The notes below the pieces were generated by a model that was not told the DNA's origin, searched no databases, and saw nothing but the letters and a program-made list of their open reading frames with translations. Positions 1 through 64,000 of a DNA stretch of 64,000 bases are shown one piece after another. The position numbers and the translations under genes were made by a program. The DNA is from a virus, in the IMG/VR virus record IMGVR_UViG_3300043427_001796; one strand, 5' to 3'. Each line of letters begins with the position of its first letter. Position 1 is the stretch's first letter.

Positions 1-1
1 T

Positions 2-115
2 AATTGTGGTGACTATGAACCTATTGTTATTATGAAAAAGAATGGTAAGAAACCACTAGTTGTAGTAGACGCAGAGTATTACATTCAATTATTTGGAGAC
101 AAAAATGAAAATTGA
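2..115 (+). CDS. 3' end of a conserved cyanophage protein (possible PD-(D/E)xK/resolvase-like nuclease), truncated by window start
   Basis: Open frame NCGDYEPIVIMKKNGKKPLVVVDAEYYIQLFGDKNEN*; resembles the C-terminus of a common cyanophage protein (recalled, not searched). Confidence 0.55.
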   Translation, partial: NCGDYEPIVIMKKNGKKPLVVVDAEYYIQLFGDKNEN

Positions 116-803
116 TTTACATAACTTCTTTAAACATTACGATGAAAAGAATCCAAAGCATGTTGCTGGAGTAGAATTACTTGAGAAGGTGCTTGAAGCA
201 AAGGCACCAGAAGAAATTGAAGATACTGCTGAGTGGGTCAATAAATTTAGAGAAAAAGCAGCAGATCCAGCAGTGCCATCAGTATTAGATGTGCCATTTT
301 TTCCACAGACAGATAACTACAGAGATGCCCAGAGAACCTGTAACTCATCTGCCTGTGCTATGGCACTAGAGTATTTCAAACCAGGAACATTGCCTGGTCC
401 CAAGGGAGATGATGCCTATGTTAGAAAGGTATTCGCTATTGGCGACTCAACTGATCACTCAGTTCAAACCAAAGTTCTTAAAGACTTTGGAATTGATTCA
501 CGCTTTGAGTATAATCTTAATTTTGCCGAACTTGATCGTCAGCTTGCTGCTGGGAGACCTATTGTTATCGGGTTCTATCATCGTGGTCCTTTATCTGCTC
601 CTACTGGTGGGCACATGGCTGTAGTTATTGGTAAGAAAGGTGAAGACTATGTTGTGAATGATCCATATGGTTCTCTCAACGATGGTTATACTGGACCCGT
701 AACAAATGGCAAGGGTGCTGTGTATAAGAGATCTGAACTGGCGAAGCGATGGTGTCCCAAAGGTAGTGATGGTTGGGGTAGAATCTTTGAAGCAAAAAAG
801 TAG
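105..803 (+). CDS. Peptidase C39-like (papain-fold) cell-wall hydrolase with N-terminal LHNFF domain
   Basis: LDVPFFPQTDN...TCNSSACAM (Cys), GGHMAVVIG (His), VNDPYG (Asp); ATG 105 preferred over TTG 93. Confidence 0.8.
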   Translation: MKIDLHNFFKHYDEKNPKHVAGVELLEKVLEAKAPEEIEDTAEWVNKFREKAADPAVPSVLDVPFFPQTDNYRDAQRTCNSSACAMALEYFKPGTLPGPKGDDAYVRKVFAIGDSTDHSVQTKVLKDFGIDSRFEYNLNFAELDRQLAAGRPIVIGFYHRGPLSAPTGGHMAVVIGKKGEDYVVNDPYGSLNDGYTGPVTNGKGAVYKRSELAKRWCPKGSDGWGRIFEAKK

Positions 804-805
804 AC

Positions 806-1306
806 ATGCCAACCATAAATTCCAATCGGGCAAACAATCCTGATGAAGTTCCTTTGGTTGGTGTTGCTTTAATTAAGGAATTTGAGGGATGTGAATTAGA
901 TGCCTACTACGATCCATACACTGGAGGACTTCCTATCACCATAGGATGGGGAAGCACACGAAACTTTGATGGGAAACCATTTAAAATTACTGATAAGATC
1001 ACACAAAAAGAAGCAGATGATCTTTTAATTAATCAAATCAAAACTCAGTTCATTCCTAAGTTGAAAAAGATTCCTTACTGGGATCAGATGAGCGATAAGA
1101 AACGAGGAGCACTATTATCTTTTGCTTATAATCTTGGCGCTAACTTCTATGGAAGTCCTGACTTCAAAACAATCACTCAGGCATTACAATCTGGAAGATG
1201 GAATGATGTTCCAGGAGCATTAGCGTTGTATCGTAATCCTGGCACTAAGGTAGAAGCAGGACTGATGAGAAGAAGAAAAGCAGAAGGTGCTTTATGGTCA
1301 ACATAA
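806..1306 (+). CDS. GH24 phage lysozyme / endolysin
   Basis: LIKEFEG-x-L-x-AYYDP...TIGWG, ALLSFAYNLG, GLMRRRKAE motifs. Confidence 0.92.
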   Translation: MPTINSNRANNPDEVPLVGVALIKEFEGCELDAYYDPYTGGLPITIGWGSTRNFDGKPFKITDKITQKEADDLLINQIKTQFIPKLKKIPYWDQMSDKKRGALLSFAYNLGANFYGSPDFKTITQALQSGRWNDVPGALALYRNPGTKVEAGLMRRRKAEGALWST

Positions 1307-1307
1307 A

Positions 1308-1314
1308 ATAAATA
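1308..1314 (+). promoter_or_regulatory. T4-type late promoter (ATAAATA)
   Basis: ATAAATA 20 nt before ATG 1334. Confidence 0.6.
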
Positions 1315-1333
1315 GTTCTATATAGGCAAAATT

Positions 1334-2473
1334 ATGGAAGATCAGTTAGGATTACAAGGCGAAGAAACACTCAAGACGAGTCAGCAATCTCAGGATCAAA
1401 TACCACATGATCCTACTGCTGCTGCTCGTTTCCCTGGTGGATATACACCAGTTGGTGATGTAAGTATCACTACACCAGTAGAAGATGCTCCATCAATTAA
1501 TGTAGGTGAAGTTGAAGTTACGGCAGGAATTGATTTTTCCAATCCAGCATTAGAATCCTTTGGATCTTCTGGAGATACTATTATCCCAACTAGTATCACT
1601 CCAGCAGAAGCATTTAAAGCTTATGGAATAGACATTACACCCGTTGGAAAAAATGACATCTCTTTTAATCTTGATACTATATCTTTTGGGAGTGGGAATA
1701 ATGTTGACGACAGCATTGTTGTTGGCGATCTACCAGAACAAGAACAAGTTGTAGACCCCCCTGCCCCACCAGTTGATCCTCCTGTGAACCCCCCTGTTCC
1801 GCCAGTTGATCCGCCTATAGACCCTCCTGTTGAACCACCCGTTGATCCGCCTGTGGACCCCCCTGTAGATCCTCCTGTGGACCCACCAGTTGACCCAGAG
1901 GATCCTGAAGATCCTGAGGAGCCTGATCCTGAAGATCCAGAAGACCCAGACCCAGAGGATCCTGAGGAGCCTGATCCTGAAGATCCAGGCAAAGGTAATC
2001 CTGGTAATGATAAAGAAGTCGGTAACTCGCCATGGGATGGAGAGACAGGAGCATCCGATAATCCAGGTAAAGGTAATCACCAAGATGGACAAGACCCCGA
2101 ACCAAACCAACCTCCAGGCGATTCAAAGAATGATGGAGGACAAAATAATGATTCGGAAAATTCTCCTGGCAATGGAGGAGGTGGAGGAAAACCTGATAAC
2201 CATCAAGACAACGGATGGGGAAATGGAGATGATGATGCTCCAGGTAATTCAGGGCCTCACAATAATGCTGAAAATGATGCTTCTCCTAGTGAGCATTACG
2301 ATGATTTCATTGGAAGATTCATAGAGCAAAATCCAGGAGATCATTGGCACGAAGAGATTCCACCATTTGATGATAATCTATACTATGATGATCCTCAGAT
2401 TTCACCACCAGTGATTGACTTTGAGATTCCAAATTACACAGATGATTTTGGTGCTGCCGACTTTTACGAATAA
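1334..2473 (+). CDS. Acidic Pro-rich low-complexity repeat protein, function unknown
   Basis: (VDPP)n, (DPEDPE)n and GNPGN/DNGWGNGDDDAPGNS motifs; preceded by a late promoter. Confidence 0.75.
   Translation: MEDQLGLQGEETLKTSQQSQDQIPHDPTAAARFPGGYTPVGDVSITTPVEDAPSINVGEVEVTAGIDFSNPALESFGSSGDTIIPTSITPAEAFKAYGIDITPVGKNDISFNLDTISFGSGNNVDDSIVVGDLPEQEQVVDPPAPPVDPPVNPPVPPVDPPIDPPVEPPVDPPVDPPVDPPVDPPVDPEDPEDPEEPDPEDPEDPDPEDPEEPDPEDPGKGNPGNDKEVGNSPWDGETGASDNPGKGNHQDGQDPEPNQPPGDSKNDGGQNNDSENSPGNGGGGGKPDNHQDNGWGNGDDDAPGNSGPHNNAENDASPSEHYDDFIGRFIEQNPGDHWHEEIPPFDDNLYYDDPQISPPVIDFEIPNYTDDFGAADFYE
1748..1990 (+). repeat. Coding tandem repeats (12-nt VDPP units, then DPE/EPDPE units with an exact ~30-nt direct repeat)
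   Basis: gatcctgaggagcctgatcctgaagatccag at ~1910 and ~1957. Confidence 0.85.
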
Positions 2474-2802
2474 GGTTTAGCAATACCTTCATTCAACATC
2501 CTTTCATTTAATGTGACGGGATCACCAACAAGATAAAGAGTGCCAAGTATTCTTCCATACTTGTCCTCTTTTGTTGTTTCAATAATCCACTCTCCCTCAC
2601 GGGAGAGTTCTTTTTCTAGCCATGCTTTTGCTGCTAGACCTTCTGCTTTTTCTGCTAGGTTTGTTGTTCTAGTTTCAGCAGCATCAATATCTTTTAATCT
2701 TACTCTTTGAGAGAGTGTGATACTAAAACCCAGATCAATATCAACATCAATAGTGTCACCATCAATGACCCTGTTGATCTTCTTGATCTTGTATTGATAC
2801 AT
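2464..2802 (-). CDS. Staphylococcal-nuclease (SNase/thermonuclease)-like protein
   Basis: RVIDGDTIDV, RVRLKDIDAAE, DKYGRILG, LNERMLNEG motifs. Confidence 0.88.
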   Translation of the reverse strand: MYQYKIKKINRVIDGDTIDVDIDLGFSITLSQRVRLKDIDAAETRTTNLAEKAEGLAAKAWLEKELSREGEWIIETTKEDKYGRILGTLYLVGDPVTLNERMLNEGIAKPYS

Positions 2803-4729: not shown

Positions 4730-4811
4730 GGGTAGGTGTCCGAGTGGTTAATGGAGGTGGACTGTAAATCCACTGGCTCTGCCTACGGGGGTTCAAATCC
4801 CTCCCTGCCCA
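4730..4811 (+). tRNA. tRNA-Tyr(GUA)
   Basis: GGGUAGG/CCUGCCC acceptor, GUGGA-CUGUAAA-UCCAC, long variable arm, GGUUCAAAUCC. Confidence 0.95.
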
Positions 4812-4840
4812 TTGACAATCCGACCAGTCTATGGTAAGAT
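4812..4840 (+). promoter_or_regulatory. sigma70 promoter (extended -10)
   Basis: TTGACA-N17-TAAGAT with TG. Confidence 0.7.
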
Positions 4841-4848
4841 TGTCTCAT

Positions 4849-4922
4849 GTCTCGGTAGCTCAGTTGGATAGAGCATCTGCCTTCTAAGCAGTTGGTCACA
4901 GGTTCAAGTCCTGTCCGAGACG
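4849..4922 (+). tRNA. tRNA-Arg(UCU)
   Basis: GUCUCGG/CCGAGAC, anticodon loop CUUCUAA. Confidence 0.95.
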
Positions 4923-4948
4923 CTTGGAGAAACTGACGGGTTTCTCCT

Positions 4949-5135
4949 GGGTGTGACAGAATAACCTATGTGGTCAAGCACTGGGTAATGTAGATTAGGA
5001 CAGGGGTGATACCCGCCATACGACTAGGAGACTAGAGGTATGAGAATCCACTATCAAGGAGTCCGAAAGTATTGGGAAAACACTTACTATCAGTGAGACC
5101 TTCCCGATTGTGAGTATGATAGAATCTCACCACCC
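4949..5135 (+). ncRNA. Multi-stem structured RNA, probably the manA RNA motif
   Basis: Closing stem GGGUG/CACCC; internal stems ACCUA/UGGGU, GGAC/GUCC, CUAG-GAGA-CUAG, AUUGGGAA/UUCCCGAU, GUGAG/CUCAC; manA RNAs are known next to tRNAs in cyanophages. Confidence 0.6.
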
Positions 5136-5139
5136 TCTA

Positions 5140-5211
5140 GGGCGATTAACTCAGCGGTAGAGTGCCTCCTTTACACGGAGATGGTCACTGGTTCAAATCC
5201 AGTATCGCCCA
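5140..5211 (+). tRNA. tRNA-Val(UAC)
   Basis: GGGCGAU/AUCGCCC, loop UUUACAC. Confidence 0.95.
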
Positions 5212-5291
5212 TAGTCCAATATATAATATGGATAAAGAACGCTATTTAAAAATTCGTAAAGAACTTGACGACATAAAAGGAATGCTTGAAA

Positions 5292-5543
5292 ATGTTAACT
5301 ATCAGATGCAAGAGCTGCGGGAAAGTATTAGAGGAGCACCCATCCCAACTACGCAGTTGCCAATGTCCGAACCTTACATCCATCCGTGGTGGCAACATCA
5401 GTGGACTGGACCTGTCCCTAGTAGAAATAATCTCGGGGGTAAAGTCTCATCATCAAAACTCAGTTCTAACAAGACAGGATCTGGAGTTTCAGGAGCAGAG
5501 ACGCAAGCGTAAGGTTCGTCGTCTGGACTTTGAAGAAAGATAA
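5292..5543 (+). CDS. Zn-ribbon-like conserved cyanophage protein
   Basis: CKSC...CQCPN motif, basic C-terminus RRKRKVRRLDFEER. Confidence 0.7.
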   Translation: MLTIRCKSCGKVLEEHPSQLRSCQCPNLTSIRGGNISGLDLSLVEIISGVKSHHQNSVLTRQDLEFQEQRRKRKVRRLDFEER

Positions 5544-5621
5544 AGATATAATAAAATTCCTTTAGAATGTCTTGATTTTCACACGCTTCTGTCATAAAAT
5601 ACTGACAGAAGCAAGCAAATT

Positions 5622-5825
5622 ATGATCAACCTCCACCAGCGTTTCAATCACTATCTTCATACAGATCGTAAACTTGATCTACAAGATATTAATGAACCTG
5701 TTATTGCTTATGGATGGACTGATAATGGTAAAGATCTTACGGGATATTACCTCTTGACAAAACACCATAAGTTGTTCTATAATCTCAAAGAACAATTCCT
5801 ATATAAAGAGTCTATCGGGATGTAG
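5622..5825 (+). CDS. Hypothetical protein
   Basis: 67-aa ATG ORF; stop codon lies inside tRNA-Pro. Confidence 0.6.
   Translation: MINLHQRFNHYLHTDRKLDLQDINEPVIAYGWTDNGKDLTGYYLLTKHHKLFYNLKEQFLYKESIGM
5754..5783 (+). promoter_or_regulatory. sigma70 promoter for tRNA-Pro/talC
   Basis: TTGACA-N18-TATAAT inside the upstream ORF. Confidence 0.65.
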
Positions 5826-5889
5826 CTCAGTTTGGTAGAGCACTCGCTTTGGGAGCGAGAAGTCGTAGGTTCAAATCCTATCATCCCGA
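5816..5889 (+). tRNA. tRNA-Pro(UGG)
   Basis: CGGGAUG/CAUCCCG, CUCGC-UUUGGGA-GCGAG. Confidence 0.95.
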
Positions 5890-5955
5890 CTCAACTAATT
5901 GTTGTTATTTTTTAATTATATGTCGTCATTTAATATTACAATTCAAAGTAACCCC

Positions 5956-6624
5956 ATGAAAATATTTCTTGATACAGGTGATGTTGATGCAATCTATAAA
6001 AGATATACTACCGGATTAATTGATGGAGTCACGACAAATCCAACTCTTATTTTAAAATCTGGCAGGACACAACAAGAAGTCATTCAAGAAATTGTCGATA
6101 GTTTTCCTGATTTTGAATCTATCTCTGCAGAAGTTGTTGCAGATGACTATGCTAGTATGATACGACAAGGGGTAGATTACTTTACTATCGCTCCAAATGT
6201 CACAATCAAACTTCCATGCACACCAGAAGGACTAAAGGCATGTGCTTATTTTGCAGACATGGAAAATACAGATGGTAAAAAGATAACTACTAATGTAACT
6301 CTTATCTTCTCTGTAGCACAAGCAATTCTAGCAGCAAAAGCAGGAGCAACTTATGTTTCTCCTTTTGTTGGTAGAGTCTATGATAATTCTTTTGATGGTG
6401 TTCAACTGATACAAAATATTTCTGATACATATAAATTACACGGCATCAATACCAAGGTTCTTGCTGCTTCTTTACGAGATGTGCATAGTGTTTCGCGTTG
6501 TTTTATGAGTGGTGCCGATGTTGTTACTATGCCCCCAGAGATTTTTGACAAAATGTATTGTCATGTTCTCACGGATAAGGGACTTGAAACTTTCAACAAA
6601 GATTACGAAGCACAAAACAAATGA
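5956..6624 (+). CDS. talC: Transaldolase (TalC/FSA family)
   Basis: MKIFLDT, GVTTNPTLI, VTIKLP (Schiff-base Lys), NVTLIFS, YVSPFVGR. Confidence 0.95.
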   Translation: MKIFLDTGDVDAIYKRYTTGLIDGVTTNPTLILKSGRTQQEVIQEIVDSFPDFESISAEVVADDYASMIRQGVDYFTIAPNVTIKLPCTPEGLKACAYFADMENTDGKKITTNVTLIFSVAQAILAAKAGATYVSPFVGRVYDNSFDGVQLIQNISDTYKLHGINTKVLAASLRDVHSVSRCFMSGADVVTMPPEIFDKMYCHVLTDKGLETFNKDYEAQNK

Positions 6625-6866
6625 GTCTAACAATCTATTCAAAACCAGGATGTTCGCATTGCCAGAAATTTATTTTCATCGCACAACATCAAGGTCTAGA
6701 TTATGTTGTCTATGAATTGGGAGAGCACTTTACAAAAGAAGAGTTTTATTCTGAGTTTGGTAAAGGAGCAACATTTCCACAGATCGTATTAGGGGACATT
6801 CCACTAGGCGGTTGCAAAGAATCAATTAAATATCTAAAAGAAAAAGAACTTTGTTGTATGATTTGA
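6621..6866 (+). CDS. Glutaredoxin
   Basis: YSKPGCSHC, TFPQI, LGGC. Confidence 0.88.
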   Translation: MSLTIYSKPGCSHCQKFIFIAQHQGLDYVVYELGEHFTKEEFYSEFGKGATFPQIVLGDIPLGGCKESIKYLKEKELCCMI

Positions 6867-6867
6867 T

Positions 6868-7239
6868 ATGTATAGCACACCAGTTAAGGGAACAAACAAA
6901 AACAAAACCACCCTCAACTGGTGGGAATATTGGATCGGTCATTGTTGGATGACTGGTTGGCAATCTATTCGTGGAGCATTTAGAATCTGGGCTGATCTTA
7001 TGGGATCAAACTATAAAGACTATGCTCTACTCAAAAATGACGATCCAGAACAAGAATGTCTTGAATGGTTTTGGGTATCTCTTGGCGAAGATGATACTTA
7101 TCCAAAGTATTTTCTTGAAGAGTTGCTTGAAATGGTAGATCGTATTGATCGTGGTGAAGAAAAACTCATTCCTATGGATGAAGACTTTATAAAAAGATTA
7201 ACAGATCTTGTAGATGATGTGGAGTTAGATGATGACTGA
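6868..7239 (+). CDS. Hypothetical protein (Trp-rich)
   Basis: 123-aa ORF, tightly packed with neighbours. Confidence 0.7.
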   Translation: MYSTPVKGTNKNKTTLNWWEYWIGHCWMTGWQSIRGAFRIWADLMGSNYKDYALLKNDDPEQECLEWFWVSLGEDDTYPKYFLEELLEMVDRIDRGEEKLIPMDEDFIKRLTDLVDDVELDDD

Positions 7240-7507
7240 TATTCATTTGTTTGTTCAAGAAGGTTGCCGTCCATGCATGTATGCTGAGACACAACTAAAG
7301 AAAGTTGAAGGTTGGGAAAATGTTATCACCATCACCAATGCTAAAGTTGGAAATCAATGGACGCAATTTGCCAATGATTGTGGTGTAGTTGCCACACCAA
7401 CTTTAGTTGCTTTAATTGATGGTGTCATTGTTGCCAAGGTTGAAGGATCTAATAACATGACATCTGATTTTTGGAGGGCTACGGTAGAGAAACATGGGAA
7501 TGTTTGA
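7229..7507 (+). CDS. Thioredoxin-like protein
   Basis: GCRPC, GVVATPTLV. Confidence 0.75.
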   Translation: MMTDIHLFVQEGCRPCMYAETQLKKVEGWENVITITNAKVGNQWTQFANDCGVVATPTLVALIDGVIVAKVEGSNNMTSDFWRATVEKHGNV

Positions 7508-7898
7508 TTATTTTCGCTCATCATATGATTTGGGTGAGCAATTTACAAATGTAGTGTGTCAAACCAAAGACATTGAAGATGGTATTGGTGGCACAATGAC
7601 TGACTATTGGTTAGATCCAAATGGAGTTCTATGGTATCCTGATTATCGGGGAACAAATACATTTGAGATTATTGAAGAGGACGATCCAAGATATGATCCC
7701 AAGATGAAGTTTTTAAACTTTGAATGGGTTCCTACCGGACAACATGGTAGATATGTTCCCTGTTTAATTACAAAATATGTTGAAGTACATGTGGCAAATT
7801 GGAAAGGATCATGGGAAACATGGCCACGATTAAAATTACATTTCAAACGAGGAATACTACAGGACTACGAGGATATCACACATGAACGAAGTAATTGA
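7494..7898 (+). CDS. Hypothetical protein
   Basis: MGMFDY...QTKD-type conserved phage ORF. Confidence 0.7.
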   Translation: MGMFDYFRSSYDLGEQFTNVVCQTKDIEDGIGGTMTDYWLDPNGVLWYPDYRGTNTFEIIEEDDPRYDPKMKFLNFEWVPTGQHGRYVPCLITKYVEVHVANWKGSWETWPRLKLHFKRGILQDYEDITHERSN

Positions 7899-8076
7899 AG
7901 TTACACAAGAAGAGTTTGAAGAAAACTTTGAAGAGTATATGGATAAGATAGAGAAGGACAAGCAGTACTTTATGATCAGAATGCCTGATGGTAGAGCAGT
8001 TGCTGCCGTTCCAGCTCTTGACATTGCCGACAAGGAGTGGTATGATATGATGACAGACCACGATGATGCTCCATGA
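7882..8076 (+). CDS. Small acidic protein, Phd/YefM-like N-terminal fold possible
   Basis: VTQEEFEENFEEYMDKIE...FMIRMPDGRAVAAVP pattern. Confidence 0.55.
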   Translation: MNEVIEVTQEEFEENFEEYMDKIEKDKQYFMIRMPDGRAVAAVPALDIADKEWYDMMTDHDDAP

Positions 8077-8297
8077 AAATCTTACTTGAAAGATTCCCCT
8101 ATCGTTATGTTGAATGTGGTACACTAGATAATGGTCATCCAGACTTTAGAATTCAGAAGATGAATTCTTACACGAATAGATATAAAGACATGTATCTATG
8201 TGATAATTCTCTTCAAATGTCAACTGCAATTGAAGATTTTGAATACACCAAATGGTTAGATCCTGATGGTGTTCCTGCTTACAGGAAATATACTTAA
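8073..8297 (+). CDS. Conserved cyanophage hypothetical protein
   Basis: LERFPYRYVECG...YLCDN...EDFEYTKWLDP. Confidence 0.7.
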   Translation: MKILLERFPYRYVECGTLDNGHPDFRIQKMNSYTNRYKDMYLCDNSLQMSTAIEDFEYTKWLDPDGVPAYRKYT

Positions 8298-8313
8298 GTC
8301 TTCGGACTTTTCT

Positions 8314-8384
8314 GCGGGTGTGGTGTAGCGGTAACATGCGAGCCTTCCAAGCTCTTGTCACGGGTTCGATCCCCGTCACCCGCT
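8314..8384 (+). tRNA. tRNA-Gly(UCC)
   Basis: GCGGGUG/CACCCGC, loop CUUCCAA. Confidence 0.95.
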
Positions 8385-61655: not shown

Positions 61656-61728
61656 GCTGGTTTAGCTATCTGGTGAAAGCACCCGACTCATAATCGGATA
61701 TAGGTGGGTTCAATCCCCTCAACCAGCA
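61656..61728 (+). tRNA. tRNA with CAU anticodon (elongator Met or lysidine Ile2)
   Basis: GCUGGUU/AACCAGC, loop CUCAUAA. Confidence 0.85.
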
Positions 61729-61814
61729 TTTGGACTCCAGCAAGGTGCTTGCTAGGATATAAACAACTGACGCCTCCCTCTGCGGAAAGAGTAACCATCA
61801 GGTCAGTGTCCAAA
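61729..61814 (+). ncRNA. Candidate three-way-junction RNA between tRNAs
   Basis: UUUGGAC/GUCCAAA closing stem; AGCAAG/CUUGCU and ACUGAC/GUCAGU arms. Confidence 0.45.
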
Positions 61815-61820
61815 TTATAT

Positions 61821-61902
61821 GTCGCTGTGGCGGAATTGGTAGACGCGCTGGGTTTAGGTTCCAGTGAATTAATTCGTGGAGGTTCAAGTCCTCTCAGCGA
61901 CA
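61821..61902 (+). tRNA. tRNA-Leu(UAG)
   Basis: GUCGCUG/CAGCGAC, loop UUUAGGU, long variable arm. Confidence 0.93.
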
Positions 61903-61905
61903 TTT

Positions 61906-61997
61906 GGAGGATTGGCAGAGTTAGGTTTAATGCAGGAGATTGCTAATCTCCCGATGTCTTCTATGGGCATCCGTTGGTTCAAATCCAACATCCTCCG
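61906..61997 (+). tRNA. tRNA-Ser(GCU)
   Basis: GGAGGAU/AUCCUCC, GGAGA-UUGCUAA-UCUCC, long variable arm. Confidence 0.93.
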
Positions 61998-62003
61998 CCT
62001 CAT

Positions 62004-62078
62004 TCTGAGGTAGCCAAGTGGTAAGGCAGCGGGTTTTGGTCCCGCCATTCGTGGGTCCGAATCCTACCCTCAGAACCA
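62004..62078 (+). tRNA. tRNA-Gln(UUG), encoded CCA
   Basis: UCUGAGG/CCUCAGA, GCGGG-UUUUGGU-CCCGC; T-loop UCCGAAU. Confidence 0.85.
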
Positions 62079-62079
62079 A

Positions 62080-62151
62080 GGGTCTGTAACTCAACGGTAG
62101 AGTAACGGGCTTTTAACCTGGAAGTTGTGGGTTCAAATCCCACCAGACCCA
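62080..62151 (+). tRNA. tRNA-Lys(UUU)
   Basis: GGGUCUG/CAGACCC, loop CUUUUAA. Confidence 0.93.
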
Positions 62152-62153
62152 TT

Positions 62154-62225
62154 GGAACCGTAGCTCAGTGGTAGAGCACTCGGCTGATAACCGAGCGGTC
62201 ACAAGTTCAAATCTTGTCGGTTCCA
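62154..62225 (+). tRNA. tRNA-Ile(GAU)
   Basis: GGAACCG/CGGUUCC, CUCGG-CUGAUAA-CCGAG. Confidence 0.95.
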
Positions 62226-62226
62226 C

Positions 62227-62255
62227 TTGACAACCATCCATCCTTATGGTATGAT
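62227..62255 (+). promoter_or_regulatory. sigma70 promoter inside tRNA cluster 2
   Basis: TTGACA-N17-TATGAT with TG. Confidence 0.75.
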
Positions 62256-62270
62256 TGTCTTATCCCGAAA

Positions 62271-62345
62271 GGGACTGTCGCCTATAGGTTAAGGCCCACT
62301 GCTTATAACGGTGTGAACGGAGTTCAAGTCTCCGCAGTCCTACCA
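62271..62345 (+). tRNA. tRNA-Ile(UAU), encoded CCA
   Basis: GGGACUG/CAGUCCU, CACUG-CUUAUAA-CGGUG. Confidence 0.85.
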
Positions 62346-62346
62346 A

Positions 62347-62430
62347 GCGAGTATGGTGGAATCGGTAGACACACCAGACTTAAAATCTGTTGGGGGCAAC
62401 CCCGTGGGAGTTCAAGTCTCCCTGCTCGCA
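62347..62430 (+). tRNA. tRNA-Leu(UAA), intronless
   Basis: GCGAGUA/UGCUCGC, loop CUUAAAA, variable arm GGGG-GCAA-CCCC. Confidence 0.93.
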
Positions 62431-62464
62431 TCCACACTAAATAACCTTGTGTGGAAATTCAAAC

Positions 62465-62734
62465 ATGAAATACCATCTATCACAATCTTATGTCTTCTAC
62501 ATGGGGGAAGTGGTGAGAATGTATTTCATACAGGGTATTCCTTATACATTTGATGAACTTCCTCAAATTATACAGGATCACCCATCAGTTCAAACACAAG
62601 CATTGTCCAATCGTGACTATGATGATGAAGACATGTATTTGGCATCTAATTATTTGGTGACAGAAGCAGCACATCCACTTATGTTTGAACTGGAAGTAGA
62701 CGATCCAGAACTTTTACCTAAAGATGATTCATGA
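62465..62734 (+). CDS. Conserved cyanophage hypothetical protein
   Basis: VRMYFIQGIPYTFDELP...HPLMFELEV; CTAAATA upstream. Confidence 0.7.
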   Translation: MKYHLSQSYVFYMGEVVRMYFIQGIPYTFDELPQIIQDHPSVQTQALSNRDYDDEDMYLASNYLVTEAAHPLMFELEVDDPELLPKDDS

Positions 62735-63224
62735 ATTTCGTAATCGCTTAATTGGCACATTTGAGAACAAACGTCAAGCATTTCGTAATCCTTCTCGGTT
62801 TGCGTATGTTAGAATTGTTCACAAGGATGTGGATGGATCTCTGATCTATGGCGAGCAAGCATACCACTATATGCTAAACTCTCCATATCGGAAGTTTGTC
62901 CTAGAACCAGTTGAAGATAACGGAAGACTAGTAATTAAAAATTACTCAGTGATTGATCATAATCTTCCCATCACGAAAGATAATCTCTCCTATCGTGATG
63001 GTTGTGACATCTATTTTAATCTAATTGATGATGTCTTTGTTGGATCCTCAGAAGGATGTAATTGCGTCGTGATGAGAGGAGGTAAGGAAACTTACTTCAC
63101 AACAAAAGCACAGATTGGACCAAACTATTATCATGTTATTGATCGTGGTTTTGATCCAGTCAGCAAGAAACAAATCTGGGGAACTGAATATGGTCCCTTT
63201 GAATTTTCTAAACTCTCTATATAA
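62724..63224 (+). CDS. cpeT: CpcT/CpeT-family phycobiliprotein lyase
   Basis: GTFENKRQAF-NP-RFA, YGEQAY...PYR, DRGFDP...IWG...GPFEF. Confidence 0.85.
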   Translation: MIHEFRNRLIGTFENKRQAFRNPSRFAYVRIVHKDVDGSLIYGEQAYHYMLNSPYRKFVLEPVEDNGRLVIKNYSVIDHNLPITKDNLSYRDGCDIYFNLIDDVFVGSSEGCNCVVMRGGKETYFTTKAQIGPNYYHVIDRGFDPVSKKQIWGTEYGPFEFSKLSI

Positions 63225-63244
63225 TTTGGAAGACGGTAAAAGTT

Positions 63245-63715
63245 ATGGACTACCCAGACCCGTATAAACCAGTTCTAGTATTGAATAGTTCTTACGAACC
63301 AATCAACATCACAAATTGGAAACGAGCAATCGTTCTACTTCTCAAAAATAAAGCACATATGCTCTCTAAGAGAGTTATCAGACTAGTTAATTACATTGCT
63401 CTCCCTCTTAAAAAGATGAGAGTAACACAACCAACTCGTAAGATGATTTACCAACGAGATGACAACAAATGTCAGTATTGTGGATCAACCAGACATCTTA
63501 CAATTGATCATGTAATTCCTAGATCTAAAGGTGGCGGGGATACGTGGGAAAACATGGTGGTTGCCTGTTCGTCATGTAATACGAAAAAAGGTGATAAATA
63601 TCTTGAACAAACTGGTATGAAATTGGCGAAAAATCCTAGAGCACCCATCAACACCATGTTTTTATCTTTAGAAAAATCTAAGGATCCAGAGTGGACAGAA
63701 TACGTCTTCATGTGA
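63245..63715 (+). CDS. HNH endonuclease (McrA/HNH_5-like)
   Basis: VLVLNSSYEP, RDDNKCQYCG, TIDHVIPRSKGG, ACSSCNTKKG. Confidence 0.9.
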   Translation: MDYPDPYKPVLVLNSSYEPINITNWKRAIVLLLKNKAHMLSKRVIRLVNYIALPLKKMRVTQPTRKMIYQRDDNKCQYCGSTRHLTIDHVIPRSKGGGDTWENMVVACSSCNTKKGDKYLEQTGMKLAKNPRAPINTMFLSLEKSKDPEWTEYVFM

Positions 63716-63768
63716 TATAATATGAGAGGGAATACAAAAGGTCCGAATAGCAGGACGCCCTCTTTCTT

Positions 63769-63840
63769 GCCTAATTAGCTCAGTGGTAGAGCACTCGCCT
63801 TGTAAGCGAGCGGTCGTCAGTTCAAGTCTGACATTAGGCT
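63769..63840 (+). tRNA. tRNA-Thr(UGU)
   Basis: GCCUAAU/AUUAGGC, CUCGC-CUUGUAA-GCGAG. Confidence 0.95.
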
Positions 63841-64000
63841 CTTGGTAGTCCTTAGCGATTAACCATGATCTCCAGATGCCATTTGGTAGTTTCCTTAGTC
63901 TGGGGTGATATAAAGGGTCAAACTACCTGTAGGAACCAAAACCTCTCCTTGGTCTTAGTATTCTGTGACCAAGTGAAGTAAAGAGGGGGGCTTAAGGTGA

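Follow-up and report, generated by a model that had tools for sequence, protein, structure and literature searches.

A probable programmed -1 ribosomal frameshift joining peptidase and lysozyme in the lysin locus of a T4-like cyanophage

A lysin locus in a 64,000-nucleotide (nt) stretch of viral DNA (IMG/VR record IMGVR_UViG_3300043427_001796; the whole stretch analysed is called the window below) probably constitutes a conserved -1 programmed ribosomal frameshift cassette, which would yield both a peptidase and a peptidase-lysozyme fusion; from comparison with related sequences we give this reading a probability of about 0.85. The first open reading frame (ORF) of the locus (105..803, + strand as all features given here) encodes a C39-like (papain-like) cysteine peptidase of 232 amino acids (aa) in the 0 frame, from ATG 105 to TAG 801-803. 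It is followed, in the -1 frame that a slip would open, by a linker and a GH24 (T4-type) lysozyme (800..1306, stop TAA 1304-1306). The source of the window is a T4-like cyanomyovirus (Kyanoviridae) whose top DNA matches, at ~70% identity, are the Synechococcus phages S-PM2, S-SRM01 and others.

Results

The peptidase ORF ends in TTT GAA GCA AAA AAG TAG, and the slippery heptamer A_AAA_AAG (794..800) stands right before the stop in the X_XXY_YYZ register of the 0 frame (codons GCA AAA AAG), as the original prediction, made before any relatives were compared, had claimed. The same prediction placed the -1 frame in register with an ATG at 806 and foresaw, beside the 232-aa peptidase, a fusion of ~400 aa with the junction FEAKKVDMPT; the frame does read AAA AAA GTA GAC ATG, and its translation gives 400 aa. 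The 0 frame closes at the TAG directly after the heptamer, and the -1 frame has no stop between 791 and 1303 (170 codons). A TGA in the -1 frame (788..790) shuts this frame until 3 nt 5' of the heptamer, and therefore entry to the lysozyme frame is possible only at 791-800. Nearly all heptamer loci of the census described below carry such a TGA at position -3. The frequency of the heptamer alone is no argument, since it is not above chance in the window, where AAAAAAG occurs 29 times vs 26.9 expected from shuffles. Four copies lie in register in long ORFs; the one at 794-800 is the sole copy at the end of its ORF and opens a -1 frame of 170 codons, while the other three open 5-10. It is conservation in relatives that is decisive in raising this site above chance.

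The census of relatives combined two IMG/VR scans, with the peptidases of the window and of ACG-2014f as queries, and four GenBank phages, and yielded 157 loci with 106 distinct junctions. A lysozyme lies directly adjacent in the -1 frame at 80 distinct loci, and at 78 of them the exact A_AAA_AAG is present in register; as the 78 loci were selected for the heptamer, 78/80 is the non-circular figure. The other two, L122 (A_AAA_AAA) and L129 (GCA GCA AAG), have a short linker, and their stop is overlapped by an ATG or GTG. Elsewhere the census found in-frame peptidase-lysozyme fusions (11 distinct junctions), a reverse-order lysozyme-peptidase fusion (one, in S-CREM1), separate lysozymes with their own N-terminal extension (six, the ATGA overlap being checked in L022 only), a lysozyme at 769 nt distance (one) and no lysozyme within the fetched downstream flank of up to 2 kb (seven). 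The comparison of homologous loci proposed in the original prediction, to see whether heptamer and -1 register are conserved or replaced by an in-frame fusion, thus found conservation at nearly all adjacent -1 loci together with natural in-frame fusions that share the junction.

Most of the 78 heptamer loci offer no start for a separate lysozyme ahead of the catalytic Glu: 43 have no ATG, GTG or TTG from the heptamer to this residue, 29 have GTG or TTG as the only candidates, several of them within conserved Leu-Val-Gly codons, and five have an ATG within 15 nt. In S-PM2 every possible lysozyme start falls beyond the catalytic Glu. Its GenBank records annotate a 73-aa 'putative lysin' (NC_006820, 2570-2788; LN828717, 1670-1888; L001 and L160 in our census) which begins far inside the GH24 domain, and only a -1 reading that sets out from the end of S-PM2p156 covers this domain in full. 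The independent resequencing of S-PM2 gave an identical junction. No annotation of ribosomal slippage was present in the GenBank records examined.

One could regard the heptamer as a chance Lys-Lys pair and the startless lysozymes as pseudogenes or assembly errors, and the shuffle-level frequency of AAAAAAG in the window would agree with this. We find such an explanation hardly credible, since the 78 distinct junctions come from independent assemblies, including the Sanger-era and the resequenced S-PM2, the lysozyme domains are intact in all 78 with no neutral decay, and nearly all listed junctions retain the motif of the catalytic Glu, usually KEFEG. Moreover, heptamer and stem vanish exactly where the frame break vanishes.

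Codon usage at the site bears on the same question. Across the 78 loci the residue before Lys-Lys is Val in 40, Ala in 32, Thr in 4, Ile in 1 and Glu in 1, and the third base of its codon is invariably A, vs an entropy of 1.1-1.7 bits at the third positions of neighbouring conserved codons. Elsewhere in the same genes AAA-AAG accounts for 13 of 85 Lys-Lys codon pairs, GTA for 29% of Val codons and GCA for 40% of Ala codons. Selection acts on the heptamer site at the nucleotide level, beyond the requirement of the protein.

The main conserved stimulator is predicted to be a downstream hairpin, which escaped the original prediction. In the window the putative stimulatory hairpin (806..864) begins 5 nt past the heptamer and has arms at 806-815 and 855-864 that form 10 bp, two of them G.U, around a loop of 39 nt enclosing a small inner hairpin; the fold has a minimum free energy of about -20 kcal/mol and a z-score of about -2.4 to -2.5. 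We scored the longest ungapped stem beginning 3-8 nt after the heptamer in the 78 junctions and, as controls, stems in 2806 windows drawn from these genes. The mean was 10.1 in the junctions vs 5.3 in controls, and the score lies above the control 95th percentile in 91% of loci and above the 99th in 82%. Representative frameshift loci have fold z-scores of -2.4 to -8.5. The stem of the window, despite the weakest z-score, is clearly present as a prediction.

The sequence of the stem changes from locus to locus while pairing is kept. There are 52 different 5'-arm sequences among the hairpins of the 78 junctions; the 3' arm is invariably placed in codons that immediately precede the LIKEFEG motif, and the 5' arm is located in an otherwise variable linker and changes to match the 3' arm, as in the arm pairs GTTCTATTCC/GGAATAGAAC, CAACACCAC/GTGGTGTTG and CCAACCA/TGGTTGG. 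In an alignment of a subclass of 15 sequences 92% of cells pair, vs 29-47% with slid partners, and two of the pairs show double (compensatory) changes.

The in-frame fusions serve as natural controls. Nine old fusions of the ACG-2014f clade have no heptamer at the site aligned with that of the window, after a conserved AKV, and no stem above background there (scores 4-6). This older clade reads AKVE or AKVT at the junction, so the post-slip -1 reading is homologous to a real protein. The predicted trans-frame product (400 aa) aligns collinearly with natural fusions 395-405 aa long, with 59-67% identity over ~393 residues, and PHROG 3617 is a single 405-position profile spanning both proteins of the window in the same order. 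A subclade of the same fusions (L003 = NC_047714 ~2000-2075; L086, L087) presents a separate observation: its in-frame linker carries an in-register GCA AAA AAG followed by an immediate -1 stop (KKV*), with an 8-bp G+C-rich hairpin 5 nt downstream in which one change is kept as G.U. A slip there would yield the peptidase alone, with the frames exchanged; this is a weak lead, from three near-identical sequences.

Two further fusions, in the IMG/VR contigs L108 and L115, have AAAAAAAG (A7) in place of A6G at the junction after GWGR, which brings the two frames into one. Their in-frame junction, KKVE, matches the predicted trans-frame junction exactly. They are nested in the frameshift clade in a quick IQ-TREE run, whose topology was used only where branches were starred, and they keep stems of 11 and 13 bp; they are either very recent one-base conversions or homopolymer miscalls of metagenome assembly. 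These variants have also to be considered under transcriptional slippage, in which RNA polymerase would stutter on the A6 and add one A to some transcripts, which would then be read in frame. The junction does contain a homopolymeric A run, and the A7 variants imply that one additional A at the DNA level is a viable genotype. Six A are nevertheless short compared with the runs of ~8-9 or more required in bacteria, and the site bears the hallmarks of a ribosomal event, namely a G conserved at position 7, a codon register that does not vary and a hairpin 3-8 nt downstream. We accordingly hold slippage of the polymerase to be very unlikely.

A second group of relatives concerns the ATG at 806..808, a possible independent or re-initiation start for a free lysozyme of 166 aa (806-1306), which is located inside the hairpin 5' arm. 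In this phage alone, the two genes might be translationally coupled, with ribosomes that stop at TAG 801-803 starting again from ATG 806, and heptamer and hairpin would be relics. The ATG is just 2 nt past the stop, and starts without a Shine-Dalgarno (SD) sequence are frequent in this phage. Moreover, S-SRM01, L008, L014, L075, L137, L122 and L129 seem to have moved to a start (ATG or GTG) that overlaps the stop; in these lineages the linker is shortened, the stem is gone (fold z-scores of +0.8 and +0.9) and the heptamer has decayed in one case. The window did not follow them: it retains the exact heptamer, the 5-nt spacer and the 10-bp stem, and since it kept the long linker and the stem that were lost in the lineages that switched, we judge coupling as the sole route improbable. 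ATG 806 is, in addition, the only linker ATG among the long-linker, hairpin-bearing loci of the 78, one base away from the ACG of kin with the same linker type (L021, L081; L099 has TTG), and it is buried in the stem. The stand-alone lysozymes of relatives carry an N-terminal extension of their own, and a product starting at Met806 would not. Taken together, frame break, heptamer and hairpin come and go jointly across relatives.

Two of the upstream signals raised in the original prediction hold less weight than it gave them. The lack of an SD sequence before ATG 806 is true, and it is non-discriminating because SD-less starts are common in this phage, where an SD core of 4 nt precedes just 12 of the 42 long ORFs of the window. 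The SD-like GGGGT (GGGGU in RNA; 775..779) is indeed present 14 nt 5' of the heptamer; its role as a stimulator is inseparable from coding constraint, as it is fixed by invariant Trp-Gly codons and kept in the in-frame fusions too, which also retain GWGR, and it cannot be credited independently. No constraint is seen on the third base of its Gly codon (T 34, A 31, G 7, C 3). A phage-encoded tRNA-Lys(UUU), also claimed, was located at 62080..62151 and is predicted to decode, and slip on, A_AAA_AAG. The window holds 14 tRNA genes in two clusters (4730-8384 and 61656-63841), which include Lys(UUU), Ile(UAU), Leu(UAA), Arg(UCU) and Gln(UUG), all five decoding A- or U-ending codons.

Both domains of the predicted fusion could be assigned. 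The lysozyme ORF matches Phage_lysozyme (PF00959) in Pfam with E 1e-21 and 78 bits vs a cut-off of 22.3, and GH24 lysozymes in the PDB match it with E down to 2.7e-12. By inspection the sequence has the Glu of KEFEG, an Asp 9 residues further on and the Thr of ITIGWG, which presumably correspond to E11, D20 and T26 of T4 lysozyme. The peptidase ORF matches Peptidase_C39_2 (PF13529) in Pfam with E 1.4e-09 and 39.1 bits vs a cut-off of 24. A PDB sequence search with the peptidase gave no match, and a fold search was needed: the AlphaFold model (predicted local distance difference test, pLDDT, 83.6) retrieved in Foldseek the clan-CA peptidases Alr0975, the C39-like peptidase 3erv, the PCAT/ComA peptidase domains and PeiR, with a probability of 1.00 to Alr0975, 3erv and PCAT/ComA, yet template modelling (TM) scores of just 0.44-0.48. 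The motifs of the Cys/His pair, CNSS[AS]CAM and GGH[MI], are kept in 105-106 of 106 relatives. By motifs and model the protein appears to be a papain-like member of clan CA, with a putative action on the peptidoglycan stem peptide.

The peptidase is preceded by an N-terminal helical module of ~52 aa (105..260; helices at residues 17-49), joined to the core by a low-confidence linker where pLDDT dips (residues 51-60). In Pfam the module matches nothing, even at E 10. In phage DSL-LC03 (L158) peptidase and lysozyme are separate genes (410-1081 and 1183-1851), each headed by its own copy of the module, and the head of this stand-alone lysozyme shares 46% identity with the module of the window (E 1e-15); the DSL-LC03 peptidase ends in GWGRIFD, without the Lys-Lys tail. 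In S-CREM1 the module is located between lysozyme and peptidase. Other stand-alone lysozymes, of the L022 type, bear a different N-terminal extension, for which no relationship with the module was detectable. The lysozyme probably needs an N-terminal module; one without a start of its own would gain it only by the slip.

Regarding the surroundings of the locus, a scan of window positions 1-2600 for promoters and terminators found nothing above shuffles, and hence nothing to suggest that the lysozyme is transcribed from an internal promoter. No second copy of the peptidase or lysozyme domain was found within the 64 kb window. The ORF after the lysozyme (1334-2473) encodes a low-complexity, proline- and acid-rich protein of 379 aa with PPVDPPV and DPEDPE repeats, for which Pfam and PHROG gave no match.

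Discussion

We propose that ribosomes translating the peptidase ORF would reach the A_AAA_AAG heptamer and be held there by the hairpin that starts 5 nt downstream. Those that do not slip would meet TAG at once and release the 232-aa protein of N-terminal module and peptidase. When the two tRNA-Lys slip back one base, reading would continue as AAA AAA GTA GAC through a linker of ~20 residues into the GH24 lysozyme, giving a 400-aa product composed of N-terminal module, peptidase and lysozyme. We infer from the comparative pattern that slippage takes place, perhaps at the set ratio assumed in the original prediction. The two products presumably act jointly on peptidoglycan, either in lysis or, possibly, during entry. 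A third product is possible in this phage, since a terminating ribosome could re-initiate 2 bases downstream, at ATG 806, and release a free lysozyme without the N-terminal module.

Several points weigh against the frameshift reading. The support for every member of the family is comparative throughout, and because the census loci are related, the counts are not independent events. The hairpin of the window has a long loop and, at -2.4, the weakest z-score among the folded frameshift loci. Also, as the 3' arms lie in conserved coding sequence, conservation of the stem is in part a constraint on the protein; the covariation is carried by the 5' arms, in the variable linker. The position of ATG 806, two bases past the stop, means that in the window the lysozyme could arise without a slip, and the GTG or TTG codons of the 29 loci mentioned above may serve as starts. 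Finally, AAG is slippery in E. coli because tRNA-Lys(CUU) is lacking, and the cyanobacterial host may differ in this respect.

It is conceivable, although we consider it a long shot, that the frameshift works as a tunable switch rather than at a fixed ratio, being modulated by the supply of phage tRNA-Lys(UUU) or by the translation state of the host, and that the two-product logic was reached twice, the second time in the ACG-2014f subclade. If so, the balance between peptidase and fusion would set the timing of lysis and the dosage of lysozyme in these cyanomyoviruses, for which we know of no recognised holin.

The frameshift reading has consequences for annotation. In the window the enzyme probably occurs mainly in another form than the 'separate 166-aa lysozyme' of gene callers, and the lysin annotation would be corrected both for the model cyanophage S-PM2, where it stands at a 73-aa stub, and for many Kyanoviridae and metagenomic relatives, in which gene callers report a peptidase and a truncated or startless lysozyme. 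It would also open to experiment the question of how lytic enzymes are dosed by T4-like cyanophages, which are a major cause of death among picocyanobacteria. In addition, the family offers a natural series for the rise and decay of frameshift signals, comprising frameshift, in-frame fusion, A7, stop-overlapping start and the duplicated N-terminal module with two genes. Full-text literature searches found no published frameshift in a phage lysin gene, and none is mentioned in a survey of viral lytic proteins from 2025 whose scope includes Kyanoviridae. If true, recoding would here be described for the first time in a gene for a phage cell-wall hydrolase.

The components proposed here have well-known counterparts. 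In dnaX of E. coli two products, tau and gamma, are made at a ratio set by the signal, which consists of A_AAA_AAG read by tRNA-Lys(UUU), a downstream stem-loop and an upstream SD-like element. The locus of the window has the identical heptamer, a predicted stem-loop a few nt downstream and an SD-like element upstream, the latter unproven. However, the dnaX slip leads to an immediate stop and a shorter product, whereas the slip in the window would avoid the stop and add a whole catalytic domain. Among these lysin loci the dnaX topology is perhaps found only in the ACG-2014f subclade, which is a weak lead. In orfA/orfAB of the IS3 family (IS911, IS3, IS150) and in lambda G/GT the upstream ORF ends at or near the slip site and a start for the -1 ORF is absent or poor, and IS911 and IS3 use A_AAA_AAG with a downstream structure. 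There, as proposed for the window, the slip extends the protein, so that a C-terminal catalytic or functional domain follows an N-terminal module; the difference is that both halves in the window are cell-wall hydrolases.

Among endolysins, CTP1L, Lys170 and CD27L occur in several forms owing to a second in-frame start, and the full-length and shorter forms are thought to cooperate. One lysin locus would likewise give a long and a short form in the window; unlike those enzymes, which share the C-terminal part, its forms would share the N-terminal part and differ by ribosomal recoding. The natural cyanomyovirus fusions (ACG-2014f YP_009778925, PHROG 3617, and the reverse-order S-CREM1, PHROG 10051) contain the same two domains and the N-terminal module, and the AK(K)V(E/T) junction is common to them and the trans-frame product of the window. 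Being encoded in a single frame, they obligatorily make only the fusion, whereas the window would make two products. In this sense, the mechanism proposed is canonical (dnaX/IS3-like), and the gene class in which we describe it, a phage lysin, is new.

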